Source of the DNA: an uncultured bacterium
GTDB taxonomy: Bacteria > Babelota > Babeliae > Babelales > Vermiphilaceae
DNA length: 64,000 bases
Reading direction: 5' to 3'
NCBI GenBank assembly: GCA_963703265.1
Contig: OY969806.1
Location: 722,407 to 786,406, forward strand
Below, in pieces: positions 37,487-61,343 of this stretch (its first letter is position 1; each line of letters begins with the position of its first letter). The notes beneath the pieces are model-generated. The model was given only the letters and a program-made list of their open reading frames with translations, did not search any database and was not told the DNA's origin. A program made the translations under genes and the position numbers.

Positions 37487-39058
37487 ATGCGTTTTTTTAA
37501 TACCGCAGGTCCTGTTAATCCTAAAGATCATTATTATGTACCTCATCGGTTAAATGAAGCTGAAATGAGGCAGCTTATTGATCAGAAAAAATATTTCATT
37601 TTACATGCACCTCGTCAGAGCGGAAAAACTACCGCAATTAATGCCTTTATTAAGCAATTGAATGATTCTGACAATTATAGTGCTTTATATATTAATGTAG
37701 AACCTGCTCAAACAGCACGTAGCAATGTTGAAAAAGGCTTGTTTACTATTCTTAATATTATTAAAGCACGAGCACATAAGGCATTTTCAGACAAGATGTT
37801 CATTTTTTTTGATAAAATTACTGCTGCAGAAATATCGGGAAATAGTCTCTTTGAATGTTTGGAATATTTGTCAATAAATATGAGTAAGCCAATAATATTA
37901 TTTATTGATGAAATTGATTCGCTTGTTGGTGATACATTGATTTCTGTTTTACGTCAATTGCGTGCAGGTTATCCCGAACGACCGGATAGTTTTCCACAGT
38001 CAGTATGTCTTATTGGAGTTCGTGATGTGCGTGATTATCGCATTTGGTCTGAATCAGAGCATAATATGATATTGGGGGGCAGTGCATTTAATATAAAGGC
38101 AGAAAGTTTAACGCTGCCTGATTTTTCATTAGATCAATTACGCGATTTATATGAACAACATACTCAAGAAACTGGTCAACAATTTACTAACGATGCAATA
38201 GAATATGCATTTTATTTAACACAAGGCCAGCCATGGCTTGTTAACGCACTTGCATATCAAGCATGTTTTGTAGATGTGCCTGATTGTAGTCAGCCGATTA
38301 CTAAAGATATTATTGAACGCGCAAAAGAAACGCTTATTAAGCGGTGTGATACGCACATTGATCAGCTTATTTATAAATTACAAGAACCGCGCGTCCGTAT
38401 GATTATTGATGCCATTATTGGTGGACAAAGTGATTTAACAACATTTCCTTCTGATGATGTTCAATACGTAAGAGATTTGGGATTAATAAAACTAAATAAT
38501 TTTGATATTGCTAATCCTATTTATCAAGAAATTATTCCACGAGCACTTGCACAAATTACACAAGAACGAATCAGAGAATCAGCCGTTTTTTACCAAAATC
38601 CTGATGGTTCACTTAATATGCACAAATTATTGGAAAAATTCACCCATTTTTATCGTGAAAATTCGGCTACATGGCTTGCAGATTTTCAATACAAAGAATC
38701 AGGGCCGCATTTATTAATGATGGCTTTTTTGCAGCGAGTGATTAACGGCCTGTCCGCCGAAGCCTTGGCGAAGGAGGAAGGTGGAACGATTCATCGTGAA
38801 TATGCACTTGATCGTAAACGAGTTGATTTGCTTTTGCATTGGCATAAGCAGCGCATTGTTATTGAATTAAAAGTAAGGCGTGGCAATAAAACATTAGAAG
38901 AAGGATTGCTTCAAACAGCTGAATATATGGATATTGCCAACGCAACTGAAGGGCACTTAGTTATTTTTGATCCTATTTCAACAAAATCATGGGATGAAAA
39001 AATTTTTACTCAACAGCATGTTGTTCGTAAATATACAATTACTGTTTGGGGTATGTAA
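37487..39058 (+). CDS. AAA-type ATPase fused to a C-terminal PD-(D/E)XK nuclease-like domain, copy 1
   Basis: MRFFNTAGPVNPKDHYYVP, Walker A HAPRQSGKTT, Walker B ILFIDEIDSL, C-terminal RVDLLL...IVIELKV (D...ExK). Confidence 0.8.
   Translation: MRFFNTAGPVNPKDHYYVPHRLNEAEMRQLIDQKKYFILHAPRQSGKTTAINAFIKQLNDSDNYSALYINVEPAQTARSNVEKGLFTILNIIKARAHKAFSDKMFIFFDKITAAEISGNSLFECLEYLSINMSKPIILFIDEIDSLVGDTLISVLRQLRAGYPERPDSFPQSVCLIGVRDVRDYRIWSESEHNMILGGSAFNIKAESLTLPDFSLDQLRDLYEQHTQETGQQFTNDAIEYAFYLTQGQPWLVNALAYQACFVDVPDCSQPITKDIIERAKETLIKRCDTHIDQLIYKLQEPRVRMIIDAIIGGQSDLTTFPSDDVQYVRDLGLIKLNNFDIANPIYQEIIPRALAQITQERIRESAVFYQNPDGSLNMHKLLEKFTHFYRENSATWLADFQYKESGPHLLMMAFLQRVINGLSAEALAKEEGGTIHREYALDRKRVDLLLHWHKQRIVIELKVRRGNKTLEEGLLQTAEYMDIANATEGHLVIFDPISTKSWDEKIFTQQHVVRKYTITVWGM
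38750..38779 (+). repeat. In-frame 30-nt GC-rich palindromic insertion (LSAEALAKEE)
   Basis: ctgtCCGCCgaaGCCttGGCgaaGGAGGaa. Present at the same codon in copy 2 and absent from copy 3 (INGGGKIH versus ING-LSAEALAKEE-GGTIH). Confidence 0.75.
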
Positions 39059-39941
39059 AACGCTTCTTTTTATTTTTTGAAGTAAAAAAACTCATTTTTT
39101 TAGATATAAGAATCTCTAATTGTTTGAATGCGCGTTGGTAATCAAGTAGTTTTTTTTGATTTTTTGCGCCAATATAATGATATCCTAAATAGGGAATGCC
39201 GCGTTCTTTGCATGCTTGTGCAATTGAACACAGTGCATCATAAGTATCATCAATTGAAATGATTAACAAAAGTTTGGATTCAAGAGAATCAATAAAGGCA
39301 CCCAAAACTAAACCTTTTGGTTGTTGATTGGCGCAAAGAATTCCTTTATAGAGTATTGGATAGACTCCTCTACGCATAGGAAGTTGATTAAATACACGAT
39401 CATCAAATGCTGAGAATGTTATTTCCATTGATGCGAGCATATTATATCGCCATTCAGGCATACTTGATATTATTCCCCAAGCTCCAGATTCCATTGACGT
39501 TAAACCAATTACAGAGCATTGTTTTTTTAATATATTGATTAATGGTACAACGGCTTGTTCAGTTAATCGACGTGGTGAATGAGTAAATAGCAAGCTTGTA
39601 ACATATTCATAACTCATCAATAATGATGGGTGATACAATAAGAAGCGTAGCCAAAATGCTAAGGGGATACCATAGCCAAGTATTGTAGAATCTTTATCAG
39701 TAATTAATGTGTCGTCAATGTCAAAGGTGATAAGGGTATCTGGTTTTATTGCATTGAAATCAATTTCATTAAATGACACAATTGACTTAATATTATTTGG
39801 CTGGTCATAAATACATCCAACAATAAAAATCAAACAAATAATACTTAAAAATAGACTTAGATATGATCGATTATGTAAGAAAGAGATTTTCATTTTAATC
39901 TGCATAAAATATATTGTTGGGGAGTAATTATTTATTTTCAT
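39039..39941 (-). CDS. HAD-superfamily (DUF2608-like) lipoprotein/secreted protein
   Basis: DxDxT motif ITFDIDDTLIT, later SIDDT. Lipobox-like IFIVGC. Alternative starts at 39905 and 39893. The 3' end overlaps convergent copy 1 by 20 nt. Confidence 0.5.
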   Translation of the reverse strand: MKINNYSPTIYFMQIKMKISFLHNRSYLSLFLSIICLIFIVGCIYDQPNNIKSIVSFNEIDFNAIKPDTLITFDIDDTLITDKDSTILGYGIPLAFWLRFLLYHPSLLMSYEYVTSLLFTHSPRRLTEQAVVPLINILKKQCSVIGLTSMESGAWGIISSMPEWRYNMLASMEITFSAFDDRVFNQLPMRRGVYPILYKGILCANQQPKGLVLGAFIDSLESKLLLIISIDDTYDALCSIAQACKERGIPYLGYHYIGAKNQKKLLDYQRAFKQLEILISKKMSFFTSKNKKKRFTYPKQ

Positions 39942-39949
39942 AATAATAT

Positions 39950-40109
39950 CTTAAATGCTAAGAAAAGACAGAGGTTATAATAAAATGAAGCAAAAAATAA
40001 GCAGTTATGTTGCACGACTTCTTTTTTTATAGGCATAAGAGAAGATAAGAGATATCTATTTTTTGTGAATAATTATTGATGCAAGGTAAATATTATGCAT
40101 TTTTTTAAT
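39950..40109 (+). pseudogene. Relic of the upstream region plus the first 5 codons (ATGCATTTTTTTAAT) of a fourth ATPase/nuclease gene
   Basis: Aligns with 42819..42979 and partly with 37415..37501. Homology stops after MHFFN. Confidence 0.75.
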
Positions 40110-40189
40110 TATATTCGATTGACTTTTTTTCTATTTGCTATAAGCTTATATGATATAATATTGATAATTTACGAATAGAAAAATAAGGA

Positions 40190-41122
40190 ATGATTAAAGA
40201 TGAAAAATTTATTAAAGAAACAAAGTGCTTGGTGGGTTTTTTTTATTGTATTAGTAGGGTTATATGTACCTTATATCCTGCTATTGAGCTTAGAGAGGCA
40301 TGGAACTCGCAAAAATCAGTGGCTATTTTATTAACAGGTACTGGATCATCAGGTAAATCATCTACGACGCGATCTATTGAAAAACAGAGTGGCGACAGCT
40401 ACAAAGTAATAAATATAGATGATTTTATTGATGGTAATGATTGGGAAAATATAAAGAAACAATTAGCGGTAGAATGGGGATGGAATGAAGTTGATGGAAT
40501 TGATCTGGGCGATTTTATAGGAAATTATCTTGATCAAGCAAATAGAGAAGAGGATAGGAAAAAATTTGATGATGCATTGCAAAATGGGGCAGTTCAATAT
40601 TGTCGAAATAAAGTAGAATCAAGTAAAAAGGTTGTGATTGATACAGTGCAGCCTTATTTTTATCATAATTTTTCTACTATTGTTTCTAATAGTTTGCCGG
40701 TTAAGGTATTATTATATTGTCCCTTATCAATAATTGGAGAACGTATTGCAAGCCGCAATCTTTTAGAGGACAGCAATGAACATCGAGATGTATGGTGTCC
40801 CTTTTTAGCATTTACTGTTATTTATAAAATTCAAGAATTTGATGATGAAATTGTGGTAGATAGAATTGTGTATAGTGATCAGTTAAAACAATTATTATTG
40901 GATAGTGTAGATATGGTGAAAAAATTTCATTTTTCAACATATGATAGCCCAGAAGAGTTAGCTAGTTTTGAAAATTTTTATGCAAAATTTTTACAAAAAT
41001 TGGAAGAACAAAAAGAGGTTGTTATTGTGCTTCGATGGCATTGTGATTTAGTGGTTAATACAGGTATTAATTCACCTGATGAAGTGGCAAAAATAATAAT
41101 TGATTATGTTGCGAATCTTTAA
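40190..41122 (+). CDS. CPT-like P-loop kinase family protein
   Basis: Walker A ILLTGTGSSGKSSTTRSI, close to the chloramphenicol phosphotransferase-like GGSSSGKS signature. Lies 81 nt downstream of the relic. Confidence 0.5.
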   Translation: MIKDEKFIKETKCLVGFFYCISRVICTLYPAIELREAWNSQKSVAILLTGTGSSGKSSTTRSIEKQSGDSYKVINIDDFIDGNDWENIKKQLAVEWGWNEVDGIDLGDFIGNYLDQANREEDRKKFDDALQNGAVQYCRNKVESSKKVVIDTVQPYFYHNFSTIVSNSLPVKVLLYCPLSIIGERIASRNLLEDSNEHRDVWCPFLAFTVIYKIQEFDDEIVVDRIVYSDQLKQLLLDSVDMVKKFHFSTYDSPEELASFENFYAKFLQKLEEQKEVVIVLRWHCDLVVNTGINSPDEVAKIIIDYVANL

Positions 41123-41138
41123 AAATAATTAAATTTTT

Positions 41139-41783
41139 TTATAACATCATAATAACCCAGTCTATATTACCTATCATATGTAGTAAAATAGCAAGATCAA
41201 TTCTTTGGCAATAAAGCGTGATAATTGATTGCATTAATCCAAAATTAAAATGACTAAGGAATTTGCGTGCATGTTGTTGCCAAGAGACTATGCCGGTAAG
41301 GCTTTCGCTCGTAAACCAATGACTTAAAGAAAAAGTAATTGAGCTCAGAATGATTAATGTAATAATTGTTTTTTTGTGAGTATTGGCAATATTAATTAAA
41401 AATCCACGTGCGCTAAATTCTTCAAGAAGAGGAATGAAAATCATTGCCGTGGAAATTGATTGCAAGAATGGATTCCCTGAAACAAGTAAAAATGATCCAA
41501 TGATAAAGTAGAGAACTATGTATATTATTATTGTATTGCAATGGTATCCGCATAAGGTAAATGTATGTTTTTGGTAAAAGGATTTTCCAAATATAAACAA
41601 AGGAAAACCTAAAAAAATGATTCCTTTTATAAGCCATGCTTCAAGTTCTGATTGGAAGTAGTAATAAAAAAAATGATAAGGGAATAAGGCGTGACATGCG
41701 CCAAGAGCGAGTGGCATCAGCCACATGCAATACGTATTAATCATTTGCTTTGTCATAATTTTTCCTTCATTTTTATAGCTCAT
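41139..41783 (-). CDS. CPBP family intramembrane glutamic endopeptidase (CAAX protease/Abi-like)
   Basis: Motif 1 EEFSARGF (EExxxR), FSLSHW, HMIGN. Six or more TM helices. Confidence 0.75.
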   Translation of the reverse strand: MSYKNEGKIMTKQMINTYCMWLMPLALGACHALFPYHFFYYYFQSELEAWLIKGIIFLGFPLFIFGKSFYQKHTFTLCGYHCNTIIIYIVLYFIIGSFLLVSGNPFLQSISTAMIFIPLLEEFSARGFLINIANTHKKTIITLIILSSITFSLSHWFTSESLTGIVSWQQHARKFLSHFNFGLMQSIITLYCQRIDLAILLHMIGNIDWVIMML

Positions 41784-42718
41784 CTATATTCATATAAAAC
41801 ATATTTGCCATCATCACTTGTGCCGTCACCTATTTTAATGAATCCAATTTTATCATAAAAATGTAAAGCTTTTTTATTTTTAATAAGACATTTTAATTTC
41901 CAGGGAAGTGGTAGCCATGCAGTTAGGCTTTGTATTAAAAGAGTTCCGATGCCTTGTTTTTGATGATGAGGAGAAATAAAGAGATGATGAATGAAAGAAT
42001 CCTTCTCCCAAATAGATATAAGCCCCAGAATTGTTTTATGTTGATCTTCTGCCAACATAATTACTTCACCTTTTGTTTGTATATAAAAATCTTCAAGTTT
42101 AAATTTTGTTTGATCTTCCCAGGTGAATGCAGAGCGACGAGATTCTAAAAAAAGACTTGCTAGAGATGGCATATCATTTGGTTGAGCCTGGCGAATGGAA
42201 ATAAACATATTTTTTTTGTCGTTTTTTTTAGTTGTGATCCATGAAATAAATTGGGTTGCAATGTTTTCAGAGGTAATATTAATATCTTCTACAATAAGGC
42301 TATTTTTTTGTTGTTTGACCTCCGCTTCAAGAAGATGCGCCCAGTTAATATTGTCAACGATAAGTTGTTCATTCCATCCTCGTTCTTGAAGGCGATTTTT
42401 TATAGTAACTTCATCTATTTTTATAAACCCAAAAAATGGTGATATAGGTAAGTTATTATTATCTATTACTTGTAGCACTTCTGATGGAACTGATACGCCA
42501 CAGAGAATAGTTGTTTTTTGTTGCTTATTGTTTTCAATTGCTTTATTAAGCCAGAAAGAGGTTGTTGCAATTCTCCATGCTCTGTCTGCATCTGTCGGAA
42601 CTCCATTTTCATCAAAATCATATATTGCATAATACTCGGATGATAATGATGATCTAAGGTGGTGCATTAAGGTTGTTTTTCCAGCTCCGCTTGTGCCGGT
42701 AATAAAAAAAATATTCAT
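41780..42718 (-). CDS. P-loop NTPase/kinase fused to a GNAT N-acetyltransferase
   Basis: MNIFFITGTSGAGKTTL at the ATG at 42718 (the track starts at a TTG at 42739). C-terminal GNAT motif A HQKQGIGTLLIQSL. Its stop overlaps the CPBP start as ATGA. Confidence 0.7.
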   Translation of the reverse strand: MNIFFITGTSGAGKTTLMHHLRSSLSSEYYAIYDFDENGVPTDADRAWRIATTSFWLNKAIENNKQQKTTILCGVSVPSEVLQVIDNNNLPISPFFGFIKIDEVTIKNRLQERGWNEQLIVDNINWAHLLEAEVKQQKNSLIVEDINITSENIATQFISWITTKKNDKKNMFISIRQAQPNDMPSLASLFLESRRSAFTWEDQTKFKLEDFYIQTKGEVIMLAEDQHKTILGLISIWEKDSFIHHLFISPHHQKQGIGTLLIQSLTAWLPLPWKLKCLIKNKKALHFYDKIGFIKIGDGTSDDGKYVLYEYR

Positions 42719-42818
42719 TAATATGGTGTCTATAAACAAACTGTGTCCTACAATAAGAAAGAAGGAATGGATGAATTGTTTTATTTTTCATTATAATTAT
42801 TTTTCCTTCCTAATATAC

Positions 42819-42964
42819 CTTAAATATCAAAAAATGACAGAAATTTTAACAAAATGTAGCAAAAAATAAGTAGTTATGTTGCACGACTTGTTTTTTTTAT
42901 AGGCTTAAGGGAAAATGGGAGGTATCTATTTTTTGTAAGTAATTATTGATGTAAGGAAAATATT
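42819..42964 (+). promoter_or_regulatory. Conserved upstream region of the ATPase/nuclease genes (shared with 39950..40094 and 37415..37486)
   Basis: Three-way alignment by eye: ...ttatgttgcacgactt-T8-ataggc(a/t)taag...tatctattttttgt.a.taattattgatg.aagg.aaatatt-ATG. Confidence 0.6.
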
Positions 42965-44539
42965 ATGCGTTTTTTTAATACAGCGGGTCCCATTAATCCA
43001 AAAAATCACTATTATGTACCACATCGATTGAATGAGCAAGAAATGTATCAATTAATAGATCAAGCAAAATATTTTATTTTACATGCACCACGTCAGAGTG
43101 GAAAAACAACAGCAATTAATATGTTTGTTGAGCAATTGAATGCTGCTAATAAATATAAAGCATTATATGTTAATGTAGAACCTGCTCAGATAGCACGAGG
43201 TAATGTAGAAAAAGGCATGGAAATTTTTTTACGAGAATTACGCGAATGGGCAACTATTTTACTTTCATTAGATGATCCTATCTTTGAATATGTGCGAAAA
43301 GGATTAGAGCATTTATCAGGGAGTAGTTTAAAAGAAGTCTTGCAGGCTTGGTGTATTGCTTCGGATAAACCAATTCTTCTTTTTGTTGATGAAATAGATT
43401 CCTTGGTAGGTGATACATTAATTTCTATTTTACGTCAATTGCGTGCAGGATATCCTAATCGTCCGAAATCATTTCCACAATCAGTATGTTTATTTGGAGT
43501 TCGCGATGTTCGTGATTATCGCATTTGGTCGGAATCAGAGCATCATATGATATTGGGTGGCAGTGCATTTAATATAAAGGCAGAAAGTTTAACTATATCA
43601 AATTTTTCATTAGAACAATTGCGTGATTTATATGAACAGCATACTCAAGAAACTGATCAAAAATTTACTGATGAGGCAATTGAGTATGCGTTTTATTTGA
43701 CGCAAGGGCAGCCTTGGTTAGCAAATGCACTTGCATATCAAGCATGCTTTGTTGATGTGACTGATCGTAGTCAGCCGATTACGAAAGATGTTATTGAACG
43801 TGCAAAAGAAACTCTCATTAAGCGATGTGATACTCATATTGATCAACTTATTCATAAACTACAAGAGCCACGTGTTCGTACAATTATTGATGCTATTATT
43901 GGTGGACAAAGCGATTTAACAACATTTCCTTCTGATGATGTTCAGTATGTAAGAGATTTGGGTTTGATAAAACCAAATAGTTTTGATATTGCCAATCCTA
44001 TTTATCAAGAAATTATTCCACGAGCGCTTGCGCAGACTACACAAGAACGAATAAGAGAATCAGCCTTATTTTACCAAAATGCTGATGGCTCACTTAATAT
44101 GCAGAAATTGCTTGAAAAATTCACTCATTTTTATCGTGAAAATTCAGCGACATGGCTTGCAGATTTTCAATATAAAGAATCAGGACCTCATTTATTAATG
44201 ATGGCTTTTTTGCAGCGAGTGATTAACGGCCTGTCCGCCGAAGCCTTGGCGAAGGAGGAAGGTGGAACGATTCATCGTGAATATGCGCTTGATCGTAAAC
44301 GAGTTGATTTGCTTTTGCATTGGCATACGCAGCGCATTGTTATTGAATTAAAAGTAAAGCGTGGCAATAAAACATTAGAAGAAGGACTGCTTCAAACAGC
44401 TGAATATATGGATATTGCCAATGCGACTGAAGGGCACTTAGTTATTTTTGATCCTATTTCAACAAAATCATGGGATGAAAAAATTTTTACTCAACAGCAT
44501 GTTGTTGGTAAATATACAATTACTGTTTGGGGTATGTAA
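42965..44539 (+). CDS. AAA-type ATPase + PD-(D/E)XK nuclease-like protein, copy 2
   Basis: Same architecture as copy 1. The C-terminal ~390 aa are at least ~90% identical to copy 1. Confidence 0.8.
   Translation: MRFFNTAGPINPKNHYYVPHRLNEQEMYQLIDQAKYFILHAPRQSGKTTAINMFVEQLNAANKYKALYVNVEPAQIARGNVEKGMEIFLRELREWATILLSLDDPIFEYVRKGLEHLSGSSLKEVLQAWCIASDKPILLFVDEIDSLVGDTLISILRQLRAGYPNRPKSFPQSVCLFGVRDVRDYRIWSESEHHMILGGSAFNIKAESLTISNFSLEQLRDLYEQHTQETDQKFTDEAIEYAFYLTQGQPWLANALAYQACFVDVTDRSQPITKDVIERAKETLIKRCDTHIDQLIHKLQEPRVRTIIDAIIGGQSDLTTFPSDDVQYVRDLGLIKPNSFDIANPIYQEIIPRALAQTTQERIRESALFYQNADGSLNMQKLLEKFTHFYRENSATWLADFQYKESGPHLLMMAFLQRVINGLSAEALAKEEGGTIHREYALDRKRVDLLLHWHTQRIVIELKVKRGNKTLEEGLLQTAEYMDIANATEGHLVIFDPISTKSWDEKIFTQQHVVGKYTITVWGM
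44231..44260 (+). repeat. Same in-frame GC-rich palindromic insertion as 38750..38779
   Basis: Identical 30-mer at the homologous codon. Confidence 0.75.
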
Positions 44540-44549
44540 TTTCCATCAT

Positions 44550-45998
44550 TTAATATCCAACAGGTGTTTTAGTATGCCAATCAGTTTCTTGTTGATATGC
44601 ATGTCCAACTTGATACAACAATTCCTCTGATAACTTAGGCCCAACAATTTGTAATCCTATTGGTAAGTTGTTGCTACTCATACCACATGGCAGTGCAAGA
44701 GAAGTAATACCTGCCAAATTCATTGCACAGGTAAAATAGTCTTGGAGATCGAGTTGTAATTTATTATTCGCAAATTCTCCAAATTTAAATGCAGGAGCAG
44801 GATGTATTGGCATTAGAAGTATATCAATATTGGTGAACGCTTGTGCAAATTCATGACTAATTAATCGTTGAACTTTTTGTGCATTATTATAAAATTGTCC
44901 CGCATGACCAGCAGAAAGAACATAGTTACCCACTAAAATACGAGCTCGTACTTCCTCTCCAAATCCATCATGTCGGGTGCTGCCATACATTTTGGCAAGT
45001 GTTGTGGCCTTTTTATTGCGAAGTCCGTATCGTACGCCATCAAAGCGTGCTAAATTTGATGCAGCTTCGGCTCGACTTAAAATAAAATAGGTTGCCGCGG
45101 CATAATCAAGTGTCGGTAATGATATATGTTTAATGGATGCACCATTTTTTTCGAATATTTTAATTGCTGTTTTTATAGCATTAACAATTTCTGTTTCTAC
45201 GCCATCGGCGTGAAGTGCATTTTCAACAACGCCAATACGCAGGTTTTTTGGTAAAATACCCGTCAAATTTTGGGTATAATCTTTTTTTTCTACTTGTTGC
45301 ATTGATGCATCTTTATTATCTTTGCCCGCAATAACGGAAAGTACGCGTGCGTTATCATAGACGGTGCGTGCTATAATGCCGATTTGATCAAGAGATGATC
45401 CATAGGCAACAAGCCCATAGCGAGAAACGAGGCCATAGGTTGGTTTTAGTCCAACAACGCCACATAAGGCAGAAGGTTGATTGACCGACCCACCAGTTTC
45501 TGAGCCGAGTGCCCAGGGCACTAATCCTGCCGCAACTGCTGCAGCAGATCCACCACTCGATCCGCCGGGTACGCGTGATACATCCCATGGGTTATGTGTT
45601 TTTTGAAAAGCTGAAGTTTCTGTTGAACTTCCCATGGCAAATTCATCCATGTTTGCGCGACCAATGAGTAATGCACCTGCGTTTTTAAGGCGAGTAATTG
45701 CAGTTGCATCGTAAGTTGCAACAAAATTTTCAAGAATTTTTGATGCACATGAAGTAATTCGGCCTTCTTGGCAAATATTATCTTTAATAAGACCGGGAAT
45801 TCCGTAAAGCTGTGTGCCTTGCACTGAAGTATGTCGTAAAATTGAATCTTTATCAAAAATTTCTAATGCCGAACCGATAGCGCCATCAAAAGCTTCGAAT
45901 CGTTTAATATAAAATTTAAGAATTTCTTCTTTTGAAATTTCTTTTTTGGCAAGTTTTTGTTCTAATTCACGGATAGTGATAAATGGAGTGAGGCTCAT
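44550..45998 (-). CDS. gatA: Glu/Asp-tRNA amidotransferase subunit A
   Basis: Amidase signature [14 protein letters not shown]. Lies directly downstream of gatC. Confidence 0.95.
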
Positions 45999-46019
45999 TT
46001 TTTTCCTTTTGTTGTTATT

Positions 46020-46307
46020 TTATTGGCCGGGTTCGATAATGACAGGAACAATGAAAAAATCACCTTCGCGTTCTGGAGCTTGTGCAAGAATTGGGTGCGG
46101 ATCTGTTGGGATAACAATATCATCACGTTCAATATTATTATTTTTGGGCGAGTGAGCAGTTATATCTTTTGCAATATCTTGAACACGTATAGCATAATTG
46201 AGAACCGCTTCAAGATGTTTTGTTACCGATATTATTTCTTCTTCAGTTAAGTCAATGAGTGATAATCGTGCAATTTTTTCAACTTCTTCTTTAGTAATGC
46301 GTCTCAT
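46020..46307 (-). CDS. gatC: Glu/Asp-tRNA amidotransferase subunit C
   Basis: MRRITKEEVEKIARLSLIDLTEEE. Start moved to the ATG at 46307 so it no longer overlaps the MATE gene. Confidence 0.9.
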   Translation of the reverse strand: MRRITKEEVEKIARLSLIDLTEEEIISVTKHLEAVLNYAIRVQDIAKDITAHSPKNNNIERDDIVIPTDPHPILAQAPEREGDFFIVPVIIEPGQ

Positions 46308-46318
46308 AATATTTTTCC

Positions 46319-47719
46319 TTAGGTGAGTGTTGCCTTTTTCCAACGTTCGCCGTTAAATCTTTTGATATACCATATACTCATAAGTGCGTTGCCAATATAA
46401 AATGAACCGTACAGGAGAATAAGTTTTACTGCTTCATTTTGAAATTGCCATTGGGATAATACGTACGAAATAGGTCCAAAAAAACAACAACAGGTAACAA
46501 GTCGGACTCCCATGACAATTCGTACATTACCGGTACCGCGAAGCGCCCCTGATAAAATTAATTGTAGCAAATCAAATAAAATAAATATACTCAGAATAGG
46601 AAATGCTTGAGCTGCTAATTCATTAAATTCTCCTTTTTTATCAAAGAGATAAATGATGTGGGATAATTTGTATATAAACAAAGATCCGATAATGATAATA
46701 GCTGTGGATGCTAAAAGGAGAGTTTTTTTAATATTTATTTTAATGCCATCCCAATTTTTAATACCTGCGTCATTGCTGACTAAAAAAGTTATGATTTGTG
46801 CAAATGCAAGAGCAGGTAAAAACACAAAACGTTCCATATCTTTTACTACACAAAATGCGGCAGTTCCTGTCGTTCCAATGGTTGCGATTCTACTGCCAAG
46901 CCAAATATATGCTCCTGCCATAATACCTTTATCAAGTATTACTGGCCATGATATAGTGAGTAAATGTTTTATATAAGAAGTGTCATTGAGGCCGGAAAAA
47001 ATATTGATACCATATTTAAGATTTTTTTTATTCCATATTACATATAATAGAGCAATAATCATCATGCTACTGTATTGGATGATAGTTGCGAGAGCAGAGC
47101 CTTGTAATCCCATGGTTGGAAATCCCCATTTGCCGAAAATGAGTACATAGTCAAAGAAAACAAAAAGGATTGAACCAAATATAAAAATTTTCATAGGAGT
47201 TCGGGGATTTTTAATACCGCGCAAAAAACCAACAAGTGCAAAATAAATGAACATGCATAAAACACCAATTGCTCGTAATTGTAGGAAAGGAACACCAAGT
47301 TCAATAATTTCTTGTGAAACACCGTACCATGTGTAAAAAGTTCGAGCACCAAAAAAAAGAATTCCGCCAAAAAGTAGTCCTAACATGGTGCTGAGCCAAA
47401 AAGCATCACGAATAGTACGACCTGCATTTTCATGAGAATTTTGACCATTAAATTGCCCGCTTAATACGGTTGTGCTTACTGAAAAAGCTTCACCTATTTT
47501 TATGATAAAATTTAAAAAAAGATTGGTTACGCCTAATGCTGCGTAAGTATTAATCATGCCAAGCGATCCTATAAATGCTGAATCAAGCCAAAAAGGCATT
47601 GCTAATAAAAAGGTAGTAATAAATTCAGTCAAAAAATAGTGTAATAATGTGGTATATTTTTCACCTTTTTCATTGTTGTACATATCACGGAAATATTGTG
47701 CAATTAAATTTCTCACCAT
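46319..47719 (-). CDS. MATE family efflux transporter
   Basis: 12-TM, 466-aa protein with MATE-like duplicated halves. Confidence 0.8.
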   Translation of the reverse strand: MVRNLIAQYFRDMYNNEKGEKYTTLLHYFLTEFITTFLLAMPFWLDSAFIGSLGMINTYAALGVTNLFLNFIIKIGEAFSVSTTVLSGQFNGQNSHENAGRTIRDAFWLSTMLGLLFGGILFFGARTFYTWYGVSQEIIELGVPFLQLRAIGVLCMFIYFALVGFLRGIKNPRTPMKIFIFGSILFVFFDYVLIFGKWGFPTMGLQGSALATIIQYSSMMIIALLYVIWNKKNLKYGINIFSGLNDTSYIKHLLTISWPVILDKGIMAGAYIWLGSRIATIGTTGTAAFCVVKDMERFVFLPALAFAQIITFLVSNDAGIKNWDGIKINIKKTLLLASTAIIIIGSLFIYKLSHIIYLFDKKGEFNELAAQAFPILSIFILFDLLQLILSGALRGTGNVRIVMGVRLVTCCCFFGPISYVLSQWQFQNEAVKLILLYGSFYIGNALMSIWYIKRFNGERWKKATLT

Positions 47720-47721
47720 TA

Positions 47722-48384
47722 CTAACTCCTTATGCAGGTAATTTTTTGTTTAAAGAAGATAAATTTTCTGAGTATTGTATCGATTGTATAAACTATTTCT
47801 TTGGTAATAAAGGAATGAAGAGATGGTTGGGGGATCCATTGTTTTGATGCCCAGTAGATTACTGTCGCATGCTGATACGGGGAATTTTGCTTAAAGATAC
47901 GAACAAGTTCTTCCGGTTGCAAGGAAGCACGAGCAAAAAAGTAGTCAATGGGATAATTTGTTGTACGTAAAAAGGTGCGCCAATCATAGGGGTAGATTAT
48001 TACATTATTTAAGGCAAGTTCCTTAATAATATAGTCTAAAAATGTTCTTTTTTTATTATTGACCTCGATAAGGACAACTTTTAGATGAGGAAAAAGGATT
48101 TTTAATGGAATGCCGGGAAAACCTGCACCAGTACCAATATCGCTGATATAGTCTATTTTAGTAAAATCAATATGGTGCATTAATGCGAGAGAATCATCAA
48201 AATGAGATGTGCAAATAGCGTCTGGATCGGTAATTGAGGTAAGATTAAATTTTTGATTCCAGGTGATTAATAATTCCATATAATGCTTAAATTTGGCACT
48301 TAATTCAATTGTTAAGTCATATTTATTAATTAAGTGCTGTAATTGAATGTTGGTTAAAGTACTCTCTAGATGCGACTTATTCAT
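47722..48384 (-). CDS. rsmG: 16S rRNA (guanine527-N7)-methyltransferase
   Basis: WNQKFNLTSI and SAM motif DIGTGAGFPGIPLKI. Confidence 0.9.
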   Translation of the reverse strand: MNKSHLESTLTNIQLQHLINKYDLTIELSAKFKHYMELLITWNQKFNLTSITDPDAICTSHFDDSLALMHHIDFTKIDYISDIGTGAGFPGIPLKILFPHLKVVLIEVNNKKRTFLDYIIKELALNNVIIYPYDWRTFLRTTNYPIDYFFARASLQPEELVRIFKQNSPYQHATVIYWASKQWIPQPSLHSFITKEIVYTIDTILRKFIFFKQKITCIRS

Positions 48385-48475
48385 TTTTGTTCCTTTAAAA
48401 CATAGCGTTGAGCTTCTTTTCTATGGTATCATGATTAAGAGTAAAATACAATTTGTATTACCGATGTGAGCCATT

Positions 48476-49165
48476 ATGAAAAAATACTATTATCTTTCTC
48501 TGGCAGCGTTTTTATTTGTATGCATGGAAATGATGGCTAATCCAACAATCTCATTCTTTTTTCACCCGTTAAGTGATTTAGAAAAAACAATTTCTCAATT
48601 GAAAAAACCAGGACATATTACTACAGCTCAAGTTCATGGAATAATGAATCATTCATCAGTTATGGGCATTGTTGTTCTTTATGCTGGCTTTATAGCAGTA
48701 TCTGATTTTGGTGGAGAGGTTATTATGCCTCGAAAGCATGCTAGTCCATCAGTGAACATTGTAGTTACCTCAGAACTTTTACCGGTTATGTTGTTTGAAA
48801 ATACCGTTGACCATTGGCAGTTTATACCAGGAGTTCCCGCAGTGATGTATTCAGGTGAACAAAAATATAATGATGAAACTGGACATTATTATTGGGAATT
48901 AAAAAAAATATCAATACCGGCAGATTATAAAATTCCGCTTTCCTCTATTATTATTGTTGCAAAACCAAAAAATATTGTTATACCTTCAGGTATAACACCA
49001 ACGCATGAGACAGCGAATCTTGTATTGCCACCTATATATGTAACTAAAGGAATAAACATTGTAACAAATAATATCTATATGCTTACTCTTCGGCATTTAT
49101 TCAAGCCTATTGATTTAAAAAATAAACGTGAGCCAATTCAAATTCTTACTCATGTTATGGATTAA
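48476..49165 (+). CDS. Secreted hypothetical protein
   Basis: Signal MKKYYYLSLAAFLFVC-MEMM. No recognisable domain. Confidence 0.55.
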   Translation: MKKYYYLSLAAFLFVCMEMMANPTISFFFHPLSDLEKTISQLKKPGHITTAQVHGIMNHSSVMGIVVLYAGFIAVSDFGGEVIMPRKHASPSVNIVVTSELLPVMLFENTVDHWQFIPGVPAVMYSGEQKYNDETGHYYWELKKISIPADYKIPLSSIIIVAKPKNIVIPSGITPTHETANLVLPPIYVTKGINIVTNNIYMLTLRHLFKPIDLKNKREPIQILTHVMD

Positions 49166-49269
49166 GGAGGAGAGCATCCATTTTTTTAAAATAAGAAATA
49201 CTGCTATACTTAATGAGAATTATTCATAATAATTACCATAATAGTGATCGCCTTCTTTGAGGATGTGAT

Positions 49270-49896
49270 ATGAAATTACAAATATCATTCGATCTTATTG
49301 ATTTAGATAAGGCTATTGCCATTGGATTAGATGTTGTTCAGTATGCAGATATCATTGAGATTGGAACTATTCTTATTTATCGTCATGGCATTGAGGCATT
49401 GAGACGATTTAAAGAAGCATTTCCTGATAAAGTAATTCTTGTTGATACCAAAATTGTTGATCGAGGAAAAGAAGCAGCGGAGCTTTTCGCTGGTAGTAGA
49501 GCAGATTGGATTACGGTTATGGCCGGGACATCGCCACATATTATTCATGCTACTACGACAGCAGCTCACAATGCAAATGTTAAAGTAATGCTTGATTTAA
49601 TAGATTCAAATTCAATAGGGCAATCAGCGTTAGAGGCAAAAAATCTTGGTGTTGATGCACTTCTTTTTCATCAACCATACAGTGAGGCAGAGTCGCTTGT
49701 ATTTCTTGATAAATGGGACATGATAAAAGGCAATAGCAGTTTGCCTATTTTTGTTTCAGCAAAAATTAATAGAGATAATGTTGATAAAATTGTTGCTCTT
49801 GGCCCTGATGCTATTATTGTTGGGGTGAGTATTACCGATTCTCAAGATAGTGCGGCGGAGGCACAATATTTTGCGCAGTTGGTGGGAAAGTTATAA
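49270..49896 (+). CDS. 3-hexulose-6-phosphate synthase / 3-keto-L-gulonate-6-P decarboxylase family (OMPdecase superfamily)
   Basis: MKLQISFDLIDLDKAI...DIIEIGT...VDTKIVDRG...ITVMAG matches the HPS/UlaD N-terminal pattern. Confidence 0.6.
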   Translation: MKLQISFDLIDLDKAIAIGLDVVQYADIIEIGTILIYRHGIEALRRFKEAFPDKVILVDTKIVDRGKEAAELFAGSRADWITVMAGTSPHIIHATTTAAHNANVKVMLDLIDSNSIGQSALEAKNLGVDALLFHQPYSEAESLVFLDKWDMIKGNSSLPIFVSAKINRDNVDKIVALGPDAIIVGVSITDSQDSAAEAQYFAQLVGKL

Positions 49897-50260
49897 GAAA
49901 TATTAAGAGTAAAAAAAATAATAGAAACAAGATTTTAAAATTGTTGAACTTTGTTTGGTGATGCTTTGACTTGATCTATCTGTTACGATTCGTGATGTAT
50001 TCTTTTGCAAGTTTTGATTTATATAGCATAGGCCATTAAAAAAGCCTGATAATTACGTCAACAAAAGGCCGTAATAACAAATTATTTTATGGCATATCTT
50101 TGGTTTTGGCATTCTTAGACTTGAAACGCTTTTATCATATTTTTAAATATAAAATTTTCTCATTATCTTAATTTGCTAAATTTTGTTTTTTTGTTATAAT
50201 TTTAAATATAAGATAGAATAATTTATTTTGTTAGTATATTAAGCTTTTAGGAATAAGAAT

Positions 50261-50902
50261 ATGATTAAATTATTCATCAAATATGGAATTTTGTCTATAT
50301 TAATAAATTTACCACACGTAATTATTGGAATGATAAAACCTTCAATAGAGATGGGAAATTTCCGTTTTCGTTTACATCACACTATAAAAGAAGGAATCGA
50401 GGACGCACATTACTTAGAAAATCATCCTGATGGTACAGGGGAAATTTATACGCGAGTCGCATCTCCTTATCTGTTAGATGAACATACTGGACCTCAAGCT
50501 ACTTTAGTTAAAAATAAGACTAATGATTATTATTTAAAAGTAAATGATTTAAAAGAAAAATATTGTCATCCTTTTAGAAATTTGATAAATAATAATGCAA
50601 TTTTAAGCAAACCACAAGAAGCATGCGAAATACTCTTAACAGATTGTTTTGATAGAACATTTGAAATACTGAAAGAATGTCAAGCGCGGGGCCCTTTTGC
50701 TCTTACTATTCCTAATGCGCAATACGCAAAGAATGGCATACCAAGACGTTTGATAGTTACAGCCTTGAAAGATCATTCCAAAAACAACCTTACACTCTTC
50801 ATTCGTGGTATCTGTGGGTTAGCTGTTCTTGCCATTTTTGCTATTATTTTATTGCACCTCAACAAAATGCCTCAGCTTGAAATTCTTTTATCATATCTAT
50901 GA
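50261..50902 (+). CDS. Hypothetical protein with a C-terminal tail anchor
   Basis: 213-aa ORF with a single TM (GICGLAVLAIFAIILLHL) about 15 aa from the end. Confidence 0.5.
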   Translation: MIKLFIKYGILSILINLPHVIIGMIKPSIEMGNFRFRLHHTIKEGIEDAHYLENHPDGTGEIYTRVASPYLLDEHTGPQATLVKNKTNDYYLKVNDLKEKYCHPFRNLINNNAILSKPQEACEILLTDCFDRTFEILKECQARGPFALTIPNAQYAKNGIPRRLIVTALKDHSKNNLTLFIRGICGLAVLAIFAIILLHLNKMPQLEILLSYL

Positions 50903-50940
50903 ATTACAACATTATATTTTAAAAAAAGATTTTTATATTG

Positions 50941-51106
50941 CACCCTTCGATCAGCCTTCGTTAAAACTTCGGCTGACGCAATCCGCCATAGCTTTAGCGA
51001 CGGCGGGTGCTTTTTTTTAGGCAAAAAACTTAGGGCGAGCGGTGGGAATGATATAGCGATCTAATCATTATGATTATGAATATATCGAGATTGAATTCGC
51101 GTTAAA
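50941..51106 (-). repeat. Composite repeat, copy 4, with a larger nested GC-rich hairpin module. It abuts the stop of 51107..52660.
   Basis: The gene-proximal part, gatatagcgatctaatcattatgattatgaatatatcgagattgaattcgcgttaa, matches copy 3. The distal stem cacccttcgat...cgagcggtggg encloses CCGCCatagctttagcgaCGGCGG. Confidence 0.7.
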
Positions 51107-52660
51107 TTACATACCCCACACAGTAATAATATCTTTACCTATTTCATGCTGTTGAACAAAAATTTTTTCATCCCATGATTTATTTGATTTGCGATTAAAT
51201 ACAATTAAATGACCTTCTGTTGCATTATTAGTATTCATGTAATTGGAAGTTTGTTGTAGGCCATCGGGAATGGTTTGTGGGCCACGATCAATTTTAAGTT
51301 CAATTACAATGCGCTGATTATTCCAAAAAATTAATAAATCAACACGCTTTCTGCCTAACGCATATTCTCGATGAATCTTTCCCCCACCATTTATAATCCT
51401 TTGCAAAAAAGCCATCAATAATAAATGTGGTCCTGACTCTTTATAATCAAACTTTTCTAACCAAATGTCAGAATTTTCACGATAAAATTGCGTAAATGCT
51501 TCAAGCATTTTATGCATATTTAATGAACCATCATTATTTTTATACCAACTATTTCCTGGTGTAGTTTCTTGCATACTTTCTTGATCGGTATATACCAATT
51601 CACGAGGAATAACTTCTTGATATATTGGATTTGCTATTTTTATTCCTTTTTGCGTGATAAGTCCTAAATCGCGAACATATTGTAAATCATCTATTTTAAA
51701 TGATTCTTCTTGGCCTGTGCCACTAATAATTGCGTCAATAATACGACGAACACGTGGCTCTTCTAATTTATGAACCAGTTGATCAATATGTGTATCTCTG
51801 CGTAAAATAAGCACATCTTTTGCTCGCTCAATAACATCTTTGGTAATTAGCTGAGTGCGATCAGTAACATCCCTAAAACATGCTTGATATGCCAAAGCAT
51901 TTACGAGCCATGGCTGACCTTGCGTTAAATAAAATGCATATTCTACCGCCTCATCAGTAAATTGTTGACCAGTTTCTTGAGTATGCTGCGCATACAAAAT
52001 TTGAATTTGCTCTAATGAAAAATTAGATAAAGTTAAACTTTCTGCCTTTACATTAAAAGCGCTACCACCAAGCACCATATTATGCTCTGATTCAGACCAA
52101 ATACGATAATCACGCACATCACGCACGCCAACTAAACATACCGATTGAGGAAAATTATCAGGTCGTTCATTATAACCTGCTCGTAATTGCCGTAAAACAG
52201 AAATAAGTGTATCACCAACAAGAGAATCAATTTCATCAATAAAAAGAACAATTGGTTTATCAGATGACCGACTCCATTCTTCCAAAACTTCTTGTAAACT
52301 TCCACCCGAAACTCTTTCTAATGCATTTTCAATATGAGTAAAAAATGAATCATCATTTTTTAATAATAATTTTGCAGCTCCACGTAATCTATTTAAAATA
52401 ATTTCCATAGCATGTTTAACATCATTGCGTGCAGCCTGTGCAGGCTCAATATTGACATATAATGCTTTATAATTGTTGGTAGCGTTGAGCTTCTGTGCAA
52501 ACATACGAATTGCGGTTGTTTTACCGCTTTGTCGCGGCGCATGTAAAATAAAATATTTTTTTTCTTCGATAAGTTGTAGAAACAAAGCTTCATCTAATCT
52601 ATGCGGAACATAATAGTGATCTTTTGGATTTACCGGGCCAGCAATTGTAAACGTACGCAT
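51107..52660 (-). CDS. AAA-type ATPase + PD-(D/E)XK nuclease-like protein, copy 3 (divergent, no palindrome insert)
   Basis: MRTFTIAGPVNPKDHYYVP, GKTT, LFIDEIDSL, RVDLLIFWNNQRIVIELKI. Confidence 0.8.
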   Translation of the reverse strand: MRTFTIAGPVNPKDHYYVPHRLDEALFLQLIEEKKYFILHAPRQSGKTTAIRMFAQKLNATNNYKALYVNIEPAQAARNDVKHAMEIILNRLRGAAKLLLKNDDSFFTHIENALERVSGGSLQEVLEEWSRSSDKPIVLFIDEIDSLVGDTLISVLRQLRAGYNERPDNFPQSVCLVGVRDVRDYRIWSESEHNMVLGGSAFNVKAESLTLSNFSLEQIQILYAQHTQETGQQFTDEAVEYAFYLTQGQPWLVNALAYQACFRDVTDRTQLITKDVIERAKDVLILRRDTHIDQLVHKLEEPRVRRIIDAIISGTGQEESFKIDDLQYVRDLGLITQKGIKIANPIYQEVIPRELVYTDQESMQETTPGNSWYKNNDGSLNMHKMLEAFTQFYRENSDIWLEKFDYKESGPHLLLMAFLQRIINGGGKIHREYALGRKRVDLLIFWNNQRIVIELKIDRGPQTIPDGLQQTSNYMNTNNATEGHLIVFNRKSNKSWDEKIFVQQHEIGKDIITVWGM

Positions 52661-61131: not shown

Positions 61132-61206
61132 GCCGGGGTAGCTCAGTGGTAGAGCGGAAGCCTGAAGAGCTTCGCGTCGTTGGTTCAATTCCGACCCCCG
61201 GCACCA
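61132..61206 (+). tRNA. tRNA-Phe (GAA)
   Basis: GCCGGGG acceptor, loop CTGAAGA, TTCAATT T loop, encoded CCA. 75 nt. Confidence 0.9.
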
Positions 61207-61225
61207 GCTTTCGCTAAAGCTTCAG

Positions 61226-61244
61226 CTGGCACAGCCAGTTTTTT
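61226..61244 (+). terminator. Short terminator after tRNA-Phe
   Basis: CTGGC-aca-GCCAG followed by TTTTTT. It is preceded by a second palindrome, CCAGCTTT...AAAGCT..GCTGG. Confidence 0.5.
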
Positions 61245-61290: not shown

Positions 61291-61343
61291 GTCCACCCGC
61301 CGTTCTTCGACAAGCTTAGGATGATCTGGGGCGAAGGCTGGAC
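61291..61343. repeat. GC-rich palindromic micro-repeat (inverted copy of the 23.8-kb core)
   Basis: GTCCAcccgccgTTCTTCGACAAGCTTAGGATGAtctggggcgaaggcTGGAC. Confidence 0.7.

Follow-up and report, generated by a model that had tools for sequence, protein, structure and literature searches.

A 30-nt tagged hairpin repeat read in frame in ATPase/nuclease genes of a Dependentiae bacterium and recurring across bacterial phyla

That palindromic repeats colonise genes in frame is textbook knowledge for Rickettsia and has been noted for some repetitive extragenic palindromic (REP) sequences; it is usually seen as a lineage-specific oddity. Short GC-rich palindromic mobile elements are also known from the AT-rich mitochondrial genomes of yeast, where GC clusters and 'byp' elements occur in coding sequences as well; the byps belong to a eukaryotic organelle and are bypassed by the ribosome. 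Here we describe a 30-nt GC-rich insert that is present in two ATPase/nuclease genes within a 64-kb stretch of contig OY969806.1 (the window; coordinates are counted from its first letter) from an AT-rich, Babeliales-like member of the Dependentiae. It represents a single, complete copy of a hairpin repeat that is short, GC-rich, and non-autonomous, and whose family we define here as B1.

The Rickettsia palindromic elements (RPEs) are given in the passages of PMC10969869 that summarise Ogata et al. 2000 as repeats of ~150 bp that form ten families and occur only in Rickettsia, AT-rich bacteria with an intracellular life. The same passages place RPEs in frame in unrelated genes, where they are translated and thought to be tolerated at protein surfaces, and also in intergenic positions (PMC10969869). 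Tagged REPs of the GTAG and CGTC super-families are hairpins of 20-40 bp with a short unpaired tag at one end, by which they are oriented, and they occur as clusters and mosaics (Di Nocera et al. 2013, PMC3733652). Intragenic REP units have been reported in known genes; the CGTC REPs include RPE-4 and RPE-6, and no transposase was known for them in 2013 (PMC3733652). The NTS/SRM repeats, which are of the CGTC type, are oriented hairpin repeats of ~30 bp with a conserved upstream tag, found in several phyla including endosymbionts (Chenal et al. 2025, PMC11893778). The Ssn proteins, small single-domain GIY-YIG nucleases, cut single-stranded DNA beside tagged 30-bp hairpins, and their gene is flanked by repeats (PMC11893778).

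The insert and the B1 repeat family

An exact-match scan of the window located the 30-mer CTGTCCGCCGAAGCCTTGGCGAAGGAGGAA at 38750-38779 and 44231-44260, both on the plus strand. No further copy with three or fewer mismatches was found in the window, and none of 100 shuffles gave a match. Both copies keep the reading frame of the open reading frames (ORFs) that contain them (37487-39058 and 42965-44539) and add the residues LSAEALAKEE between ...QRVING and GGTIHREY. A third paralogue, copy 3, reads INGGGKIHREY and aligns with a clean 10-residue gap opposite the insert. The GC content of the insert is 63% (19/30), compared to 35% for the host gene and 32% for the window, and the insert is one of just 15 GC-rich islands in the 64 kb. 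A preliminary description of this DNA had reported an identical 30-nt insert of about 60% GC in the first two, AT-rich gene copies, with LSAEALAKEE placed between ING and GG and missing from copy 3; all of this agrees with our results.

The best parse of the indel lies one base to the left of the 30-mer, at 38749-38778 and 44230-44259, with the unit GG^[C CTG ... GAG GA]^N. The Gly codon before the insert is GGC in 8/8 filled genes, whereas the empty genes have GGT, GGC, and GGT. Among the filled genes, the insert is followed by the base A/G/A/A/T/T/T. Because the preceding GGC is constant and the following base varies like the third position of a Gly codon, we place the insert at 38749-38778. 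The insertion point follows the second base of the first Gly codon in a conserved N-G-G-G loop, just upstream of the PD-(D/E)XK core.

Both window copies contain the 20-nt core of the insert, CGAAGCCTYGGCGAAGGRGG, without a mismatch. When one genome was scanned per species, this core was found at 125 or more sites in at least 120 loci; the expected number of matches is ~4 at equal base frequencies, and at most ~25 if all genomes had a GC content of 68%. Isolates with the core are Mesorhizobium spp., Brevifollis, Aquisalinus, Plastoroseomonas, and Acidobacteria bacterium Mor1. Among metagenome-assembled genomes, it was found in Saccharibacteria and other members of the candidate phyla radiation (CPR), Verrucomicrobiota, Kiritimatiellia, Planctomycetia, Bacteroidota, Ignavibacteria, Nitrospira, Acidimicrobiia, Bdellovibrionales, Myxococcales, Rickettsiales, and Alpha- and Gammaproteobacteria. 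Genomes of the Planctomycetes-Verrucomicrobia-Chlamydiae (PVC) group and of Acidobacteriota are likewise among the matches, and the core is present on 23 viral contigs. The copies are located in spacers and in genes, in both orientations, and their flanks are unrelated to one another.

A sequence logo of 124 sites shows that conservation stops sharply at -9 and +21 (C-Y-T-G-Y-C-C-K-C, core, R-y), which is the span of the window insert; the tag region of the window copies, C-C-T-G-T-C-C-G-C, fits this logo. The consensus is CYTGYCCTCC-GAA-GC-CTTG-GC-GAA-GGAGGR, and consists of a 5' unpaired CYTG tag, a stem of 7-8 bp (YCCTCC/GGAGGR), a GAA/GAA internal loop, a 2-bp GC/GC helix, and a CTTG loop. 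Since the four bases of the tag have no pairing partner, the tag gives B1 an orientation. Stem positions -5/+20 covary in the 124 sites (T-A 50, C-G 47, G-C 7), as do positions -2/+17 (T-A 74, C-G 11), where 27 of the sites have an unpaired G.A, the 'CCGCC' variant. The window copy is T-A paired at -5/+20 and carries the G.A variant at -2/+17. Counted as alignment columns, pair 8-33 is UA 56, CG 52, and GC 6, and pair 11-30 is UA 83 and CG 15; the covariation score observed for the 140-sequence alignment was reached by 0/500 shuffles, and slid registers scored far lower. In the predicted fold of the consensus, a stem of 8 bp is followed by a 3x3 GAA/GAA loop, a helix of 2 bp, and a CUUG loop; the energy is -16.9 kcal/mol for RNA (z = -3.8) and -7.6 kcal/mol for DNA (z = -2.8). 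Chance similarity between GC-rich sequences is ruled out by the match counts and the covariation.

A scan of window positions 38500-39000 against the Rfam covariance models (E up to 10) resulted in no match, and neither did a blastn search of the B1 consensus against the PLSDB plasmids. A full-text literature search with the DNA string and the six encoded peptides returned no relevant paper, and keyword searches yielded only papers on REPs, RPEs, and Ssn in general. A fragment of a universal RNA (rRNA, signal recognition particle RNA, or RNase P RNA) inserted by repair was rejected as the origin of the repeat, given the lack of Rfam similarity; beyond short matches, we know of no likeness to any of these RNAs.

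All six frames of B1 are free of stop codons and read SAEALAKEG, PPKPWRRR, RSLGEGG, SFAKASED, PPSPRLRR, and LLRQGFGG. Because the element is open in every frame, it is read through as LSAEALAKEE in the host gene. In low-GC genomes B1 occurs inside Pfam-confirmed domains of an M24 peptidase, DinB, PurM, LeuRS, Fmt, and a prepilin peptidase; further Pfam-confirmed domains that host it belong to a Mur ligase (two tandem copies), an ABC ATPase, and a RecF/SMC_N-like protein. In loci with a GC content of at most 50%, ORFs of at least 120 codons contain 17/40 of the B1 copies and 17/50 of those of a sister family (B2, described below), or ~34-43%; 22 of these intragenic copies are antisense and 12 are sense. 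The most common reading of B1 in long ORFs of low-GC loci is SFAKASED; the ATPase genes of Dependentiae use the SAEALAKEG frame. A class-I aminoacyl-tRNA synthetase gene of Dependentiae (L002:11746-14244) contains an in-frame copy that reads PARRSLGEGWA; further Dependentiae copies outside the ATPase family are in spacers, among them a mosaic array. Genes for LeuRS or class-I aminoacyl-tRNA synthetases are recurrent neighbours or hosts of B1 in a cluster of six loci (L063 and five others), and may be a preferred or well-tolerated host.

B1 resembles the RPEs in behaviour, not in membership: it is a palindromic repeat found in genes and spacers of an AT-rich bacterium, in frame and without disruption. 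It is set apart by length and distribution, with 30 nt and 10 residues against ~100-150 bp and peptides of ~30-50 residues for RPEs, and by being a single tagged hairpin of nearly the same sequence across many phyla. The RPE-like colonisation of reading frames proposed in the preliminary description is supported in this sense, although the repeat is a pan-bacterial one of 30 nt and not a lineage-specific one of ~150 bp. The accompanying statement that such colonisation is otherwise rare does not hold for B1, given the fraction of copies in long ORFs. The data support the interpretation of B1 as a REP/RPE-like element that is pan-bacterial rather than lineage-specific.

With the REPs, B1 shares the combination of a tag and a hairpin. 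However, its tag is CYTG and not GTAG or CGTC, its stem is CCTCC/GGAGG whereas REP stems start with AT (with 8-9 bp in the CGTC type), and its apex is a conserved stretch of 14 nt with an internal loop as opposed to a loop of 4-5 nt. CGTC REPs have a CCA-like 3' tail (Di Nocera 2013), whereas in B1 nothing is conserved past +21. REPIN/RAYT systems differ further in that REP families are usually species- or clade-specific; no transposase family recurs among the neighbours of B1, RAYT-type genes included. With the NTS/SRM repeats, B1 shares a length of ~30 bp, an orientation, an upstream tag, and a distribution over several phyla; an ORF of ~80 codons for a GIY-YIG protein just downstream of B1 in 8 loci may be the counterpart of the Ssn gene. 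The SRM string HGTCWYN(0-2)YYVSBRHN(0-5)WNVSBRGN(0-2)RNCYNB matched 0/124 B1 sites and was not found on either strand of the window. NTS repeats are intragenic in 2% of cases (PMC11893778), compared to the ~34-43% given above for B1, and the best relative of the GIY-YIG neighbour in the PDB is the UPF0213 protein 1zg2. An identity as a miniature inverted-repeat transposable element was rejected, as B1 is a single hairpin without consistent flanking duplication. The yeast GC clusters and byps are unrelated to B1 in sequence, and B1, being open in all frames, is most simply translated, whereas byps are bypassed by the ribosome. In sum, B1 matches no Rfam family, SRM pattern, or paper that we found, and it differs from the CGTC-type repeats in tag, stem, and apex.

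Distribution within the ATPase/nuclease family

The ATPase/nuclease proteins match AAA_35 and other P-loop models in Pfam; copy 3 also matches PDDEXK_3 at residues 431-495. The AlphaFold2 model of copy 1 has a mean predicted local distance difference test score (pLDDT) of 89.4 and a predicted template modelling score of 0.86, and its N-terminal part resembles AAA+ ATPases in the PDB. The insert (residues 422-431) is located between helix 406-420 and strand 434-440, ahead of the D447/E460/K462 motif, and is modelled as a short helix; the pLDDT is 63 over residues 421-430, compared to 92 before and 83 after the insert. The preliminary description had raised the possibility of a loop; in the model, the ten residues form an excursion between the helix and the first core strand, predicted with low confidence at the entrance of the nuclease core. 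The three paralogues are found within 15 kb (37487-52660), interspersed with unrelated metabolic genes (DUF2608, GNAT, amidase, MatE, and MIOX).

From position 38707 to the stop codon at 39058, copies 1 and 2 differ at 7 of 351 positions, whereas about 1 in 9 positions differs upstream. Because this 3' tract is near-identical against a divergent upstream part, the two window copies of the insert are not independent. They represent one event, which was spread between the paralogues by gene conversion of the 3' end of the gene.

We compared 118 full-length homologues, and calculated a neighbour-joining tree without the insert columns. Close homologues bear the names Candidatus Babeliales or Dependentiae. 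The source contig itself (1,469,486 bp) contributes at least 10 paralogues among the best 120 homologue matches; among these, the insert is confined to the two window copies. At the identical site, 8/118 homologues have a related decapeptide (LSAEALAKEE, LSFEALAKED, VSAEASAKGE, VSAEALAKEG, LSSEALAKED, or LPFEALAKEG) and the segment was absent in 110/118; one more family member has an unrelated insert of 27 residues at the same site. DNA was obtained for six of the eight carriers, from independent metagenomes. The core GAA GCC TTG GCG AAG GAG is identical in all but one carrier, synonymous positions included. Where the amino acid is conserved, the codon is identical in 196/200 comparisons (98%) within the insert, compared to 550/1068 (51%) in the flanks. 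Since synonymous sites are frozen in the insert and not in the flanks, conservation acts at the level of the nucleotides and not of the protein. The preliminary description had considered that homologues might have the same ten residues in ordinary codons; the carriers have GC-rich DNA with frozen synonymous sites at this position.

In the tree, the carriers occupy at least six separate places, each with insert-less nearest neighbours, and both deep subtypes ('ALDRKR' and 'ALGRKR') are represented. The stem variants of the carriers (CCGCC, CCTCC, and CCTTC) are the same as those circulating in the pan-bacterial pool. Repeated entry is favoured over a single old insertion because the carriers are scattered over both subtypes, their sequence is frozen, and their variants are those of the general pool. 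From these sequences we infer a history of repeated entry at the G-rich N-G-G-G site, or of passage among paralogues by conversion, with occasional precise loss. The insert-less homologue P0015 is nested beside carriers P0008 and P0009, and this placement suggests one loss.

About 30 of the 118 members have a longer version of a second loop, which lies between VDLLxxW and QRIVIELK. In homologue P0022 (L008:11342-11410), this loop holds TTCGCCAAGGCTTC, which is the B1 core in reverse orientation read as FAKAS, followed by TTCGTTAAAACTTC, the same 14-mer as at window positions 50957-50970. At 61296-61325, the window contains ccgttCTTCGACAAGCTTAGGATGA, which resembles another GC-rich module ('FDKLR' reading); this module is inserted in frame at a second variable loop of P0024 (L005: GCT TCC TTC GAC AAG CTC AGG ACG).

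Mode of spread and alternative explanations

Taken as a whole, the observations are best explained by a dispersed 30-nt tagged hairpin repeat that is read through in frame, with one event and subsequent conversion for the window copies, and re-entry or conversion within the family; we assign this reading a probability of roughly 0.8. The mode of spread can be modelled by analogy to the REP/RAYT and NTS/Ssn systems, and this part we consider doubtful. The tagged hairpin would be recognised as single-stranded DNA by a structure-specific nuclease or transposase acting in trans. Only copies that match the specificity of the enzyme would propagate, which would keep the sequence constant, and phages and other transferred DNA would carry the element between phyla. 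The sole candidate partner that we saw is the single-domain GIY-YIG protein encoded just downstream of B1.

This GIY-YIG protein (~80 residues; PF01541, 3.2e-16) represents the top recurrent neighbour family and the sole small neighbour that recurs, and its gene is downstream of and co-oriented with B1 in all 8 loci. An NCBIfam scan gave no name for it. In several of these loci, the GGAGG of the element lies ~7-25 nt ahead of the likely start codon. The link between the element and the GIY-YIG gene is suggestive, not general. In six alphaproteobacterial loci (L013, L033, L036, L039, L051, and L076), a tRNA gene, one or two GC-rich hairpins, B1, and the ORF for the GIY-YIG protein follow one another, all co-oriented; in L036 a similar hairpin (GCCTTCGGCTTCGGRTGGCGCAGCCAT) is present on both sides of the GIY-YIG gene.

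Several observations weigh against a mobile, translated repeat of this kind. The preliminary description had called the insert hairpin-forming, which is true of the family consensus; the stem of the window copy, however, is imperfect (G.A; CCGCC versus GGAGG), and while it adopts the same topology at -13.2 kcal/mol, its z of -0.4 is no better than that of shuffles. Just ~5% of the copies adjoin a GIY-YIG gene. A search of ~150 kb of Dependentiae DNA revealed no mobilising enzyme; there, as in the window, a custom GIY-YIG hidden Markov model gave no match at E up to 10. The flanks of the copies show no consistent target-site duplication, which speaks against a simple transposon. The orthologous pair L001/L002 shares the insert, which has diverged to a similar extent as its flanks (87% versus 83%); judged from this pair, part of the distribution of the insert is plain vertical descent. 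Finally, of 149 copies, 17 are located downstream of a tRNA gene at a distance of at most 250 nt, each in the same orientation as the tRNA. This co-orientation hints at a constraint that is RNA-level or strand-specific and is unaccounted for by the proposed model. The tRNA-proximal copies are usually preceded by another hairpin that starts at the CCA end.

Flanking repeats of at least 8 nt were found at 13 sites, against an expectation of 1.8. This excess probably reflects copies embedded in local tandem-repeat arrays, though some may be target duplications. Copies between direct repeats of a short host-specific motif, for example ATCCGTG(G/C) or AAATACTAAA, are found in L017, L068, and L090 (PVC group), and in L027, L088, and L070.

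The alternatives concern the origin of the decapeptide in the ATPase/nuclease family. The identical site, frame, and orientation in all eight carriers, and the GG microhomology on both sides of the element, would fit a single ancient insertion in the ancestor of the family that was kept unchanged by nucleotide-level selection or continual conversion with other copies in the genome and was lost many times, precisely, by slippage between the GG(N) repeats, with no repeated insertion. The apparent loss in P0015, the vertical sharing in L001/L002, and the gene conversion directly observed between paralogues fit this history as well. It would, however, require that the element was lost precisely and independently at least 6-10 times over the two deep subtypes, as well as an unexplained force that freezes 30 nt while the flanks saturate, and the variants carried are those of the pan-bacterial pool. 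We consider a single insertion unlikely.

The conservation of nucleotides could also result from a cis-acting signal: an internal Shine-Dalgarno sequence (AAGGAGG), masked by the complementary anti-Shine-Dalgarno-like CCKCC, that makes ribosomes pause or start the nuclease domain internally, or a hairpin that binds a protein. The perfect AAGGAGG paired with CC(T/G)CC, its location at the junction of the ATPase and nuclease domains, the ribosome-binding-site-like spacing of GGAGG in the GIY-YIG loci, and the co-orientation of every tRNA-proximal copy are consistent with such a signal. In the ATPase genes, however, no start codon is conserved at the distance of a ribosome-binding site (the next codons are GGN GGN ACN/AAN ATH), and most paralogues do without the element; elsewhere, intragenic copies are more often antisense than sense (22 versus 12), and all six frames are used. 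A cis-acting signal is therefore improbable.

An ancestral loop, in which the ten residues are old in the family, functional in a few members, and lost by deletion from all others, copy 3 among them, would fit the similar decapeptides at the identical site in homologues from other metagenomes, the nesting of P0015, and the insert common to L001/L002. We regard it as highly implausible: the 110 members without the segment include the closest paralogues of the same genome, the frozen synonymous sites (98% versus 51% codon identity) are the reverse of what selection on the protein would leave, identical nucleotide strings are found across phyla in spacers and in unrelated genes, where frame and orientation differ, and the flanks exclude the cross-phylum copies being fragments of this family.

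Near-identical stretches of 30 nt are thus shared from Mesorhizobium to Saccharibacteria to Dependentiae, in genes for tRNA synthetases, peptidases, polymerases, and nucleases. B1 would be either a horizontally circulating mobile unit of very small size or the object of a universal constraint of unusual strength. It repeatedly adds 10-residue insertions to loops of essential proteins, and is a practical pitfall for annotation and phylogeny, where it can create spurious 'conserved' peptides (SAEALAKEG, SFAKASED) and false homology between unrelated genes. For the newly described Ssn-type single-strand nucleases, B1 may offer a concrete substrate.

Sister family B2, composite hairpins, and arrays

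The features of the window are summarised in Table 1.

Table 1. Hairpin repeats, host genes, and related features in the window
Feature	Position	Strand	Remarks
Host gene copy 1, AAA_35-type ATPase with C-terminal PD-(D/E)XK-like domain (D447, E460, K462)	37487..39058	+	Pfam AAA_35 1.8e-12; insert is residues 422-431
Gene-conversion tract	38707..39058, shared with 44188-44539	+	7 mismatches/351 nt versus ~11% upstream; similarity stops at stop codon
B1 hairpin repeat, complete copy CCTGTCCGCCGAAGCCTTGGCGAAGGAGGA	38749..38778	+	Exact 30-mer; fits 31-position logo including CYTG tag; encodes (G)LSAEALAKEE in ATPase/nuclease copy 1
Host gene copy 2	42965..44539	+	84% amino-acid identity to copy 1
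Identical second B1 copy, in ATPase/nuclease copy 2	44230..44259	+	Same event as first, carried by gene-conversion tract
Composite terminator-like array between convergent genes	50941..51020	+	Outer stem GCACCC/GGGTGC, 'module A' (CAGCCTTCGTTAAAACTTCGGCTGAC), B2 hairpin, T8
B2 hairpin, intergenic copy CCGCCATAGCTTTAGCGACGGCGG, no CYTG tag	50983..51006	+	B1 architecture with compensatory changes; fold z = -2.7
Paralogue copy 3, no insert	51107..52660	-	68% identity; empty site AAT GGT GGG GGA AAG at 51391-51377

The preliminary description had pointed out that the intergenic hairpin at 50983 has the same design as the insert, and the architecture is indeed that of B1. Compared to the gene copies, it has G-C where they have G.A, and T-A in place of C-G at the apical pair. 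The pattern CCGCCNTAGCTTTAGCGANGGCGG occurs in at least 120 loci in metagenome contigs, with a CYTGY tag and covariation of the outer stem pair; by its sequence, the 50983 hairpin is thus assigned to a widespread sister family, B2. B1, with the apex GAAGCCTTGGCGAA, and B2, with the apex GTAGCTTTAGCGAA, might together with possible further types form an undescribed superfamily of sequence-invariant, CYTG-tagged 30-nt hairpins that is still mobile across most bacterial phyla via single-stranded DNA and a small GIY-YIG-type nuclease or other partner, and that routinely remodels loops of housekeeping proteins in the reduced genomes of CPR and Dependentiae. We offer this extension tentatively and would not be surprised to see it fail.

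The composite at 50941-51020 folds at -29.7 kcal/mol (z = -4.2); it was not called by a simple terminator scan. Hybrid arrays containing both B1 and B2 types exist. Tandem or hybrid arrays of B1-like and B2-like hairpins are found at L028:769-830, at L088:3690-3760, and in L167 (e.g., ...GGCGG-AAGCCTTGGCGAAGGC...), and suggest recombination or template switching between family members.

The tRNA-Phe gene of the window (61132-61206) is directly followed by CCA-GCTTTCGCTAAAGCTTCAGCTGGCACAGCC and a T-run (61204-61240). The 'module A' hairpin, which is built on the CCA end, follows tRNA genes in the alphaproteobacterial loci L013, L051, and L084, and also makes up the first half of the 50941-51020 composite.

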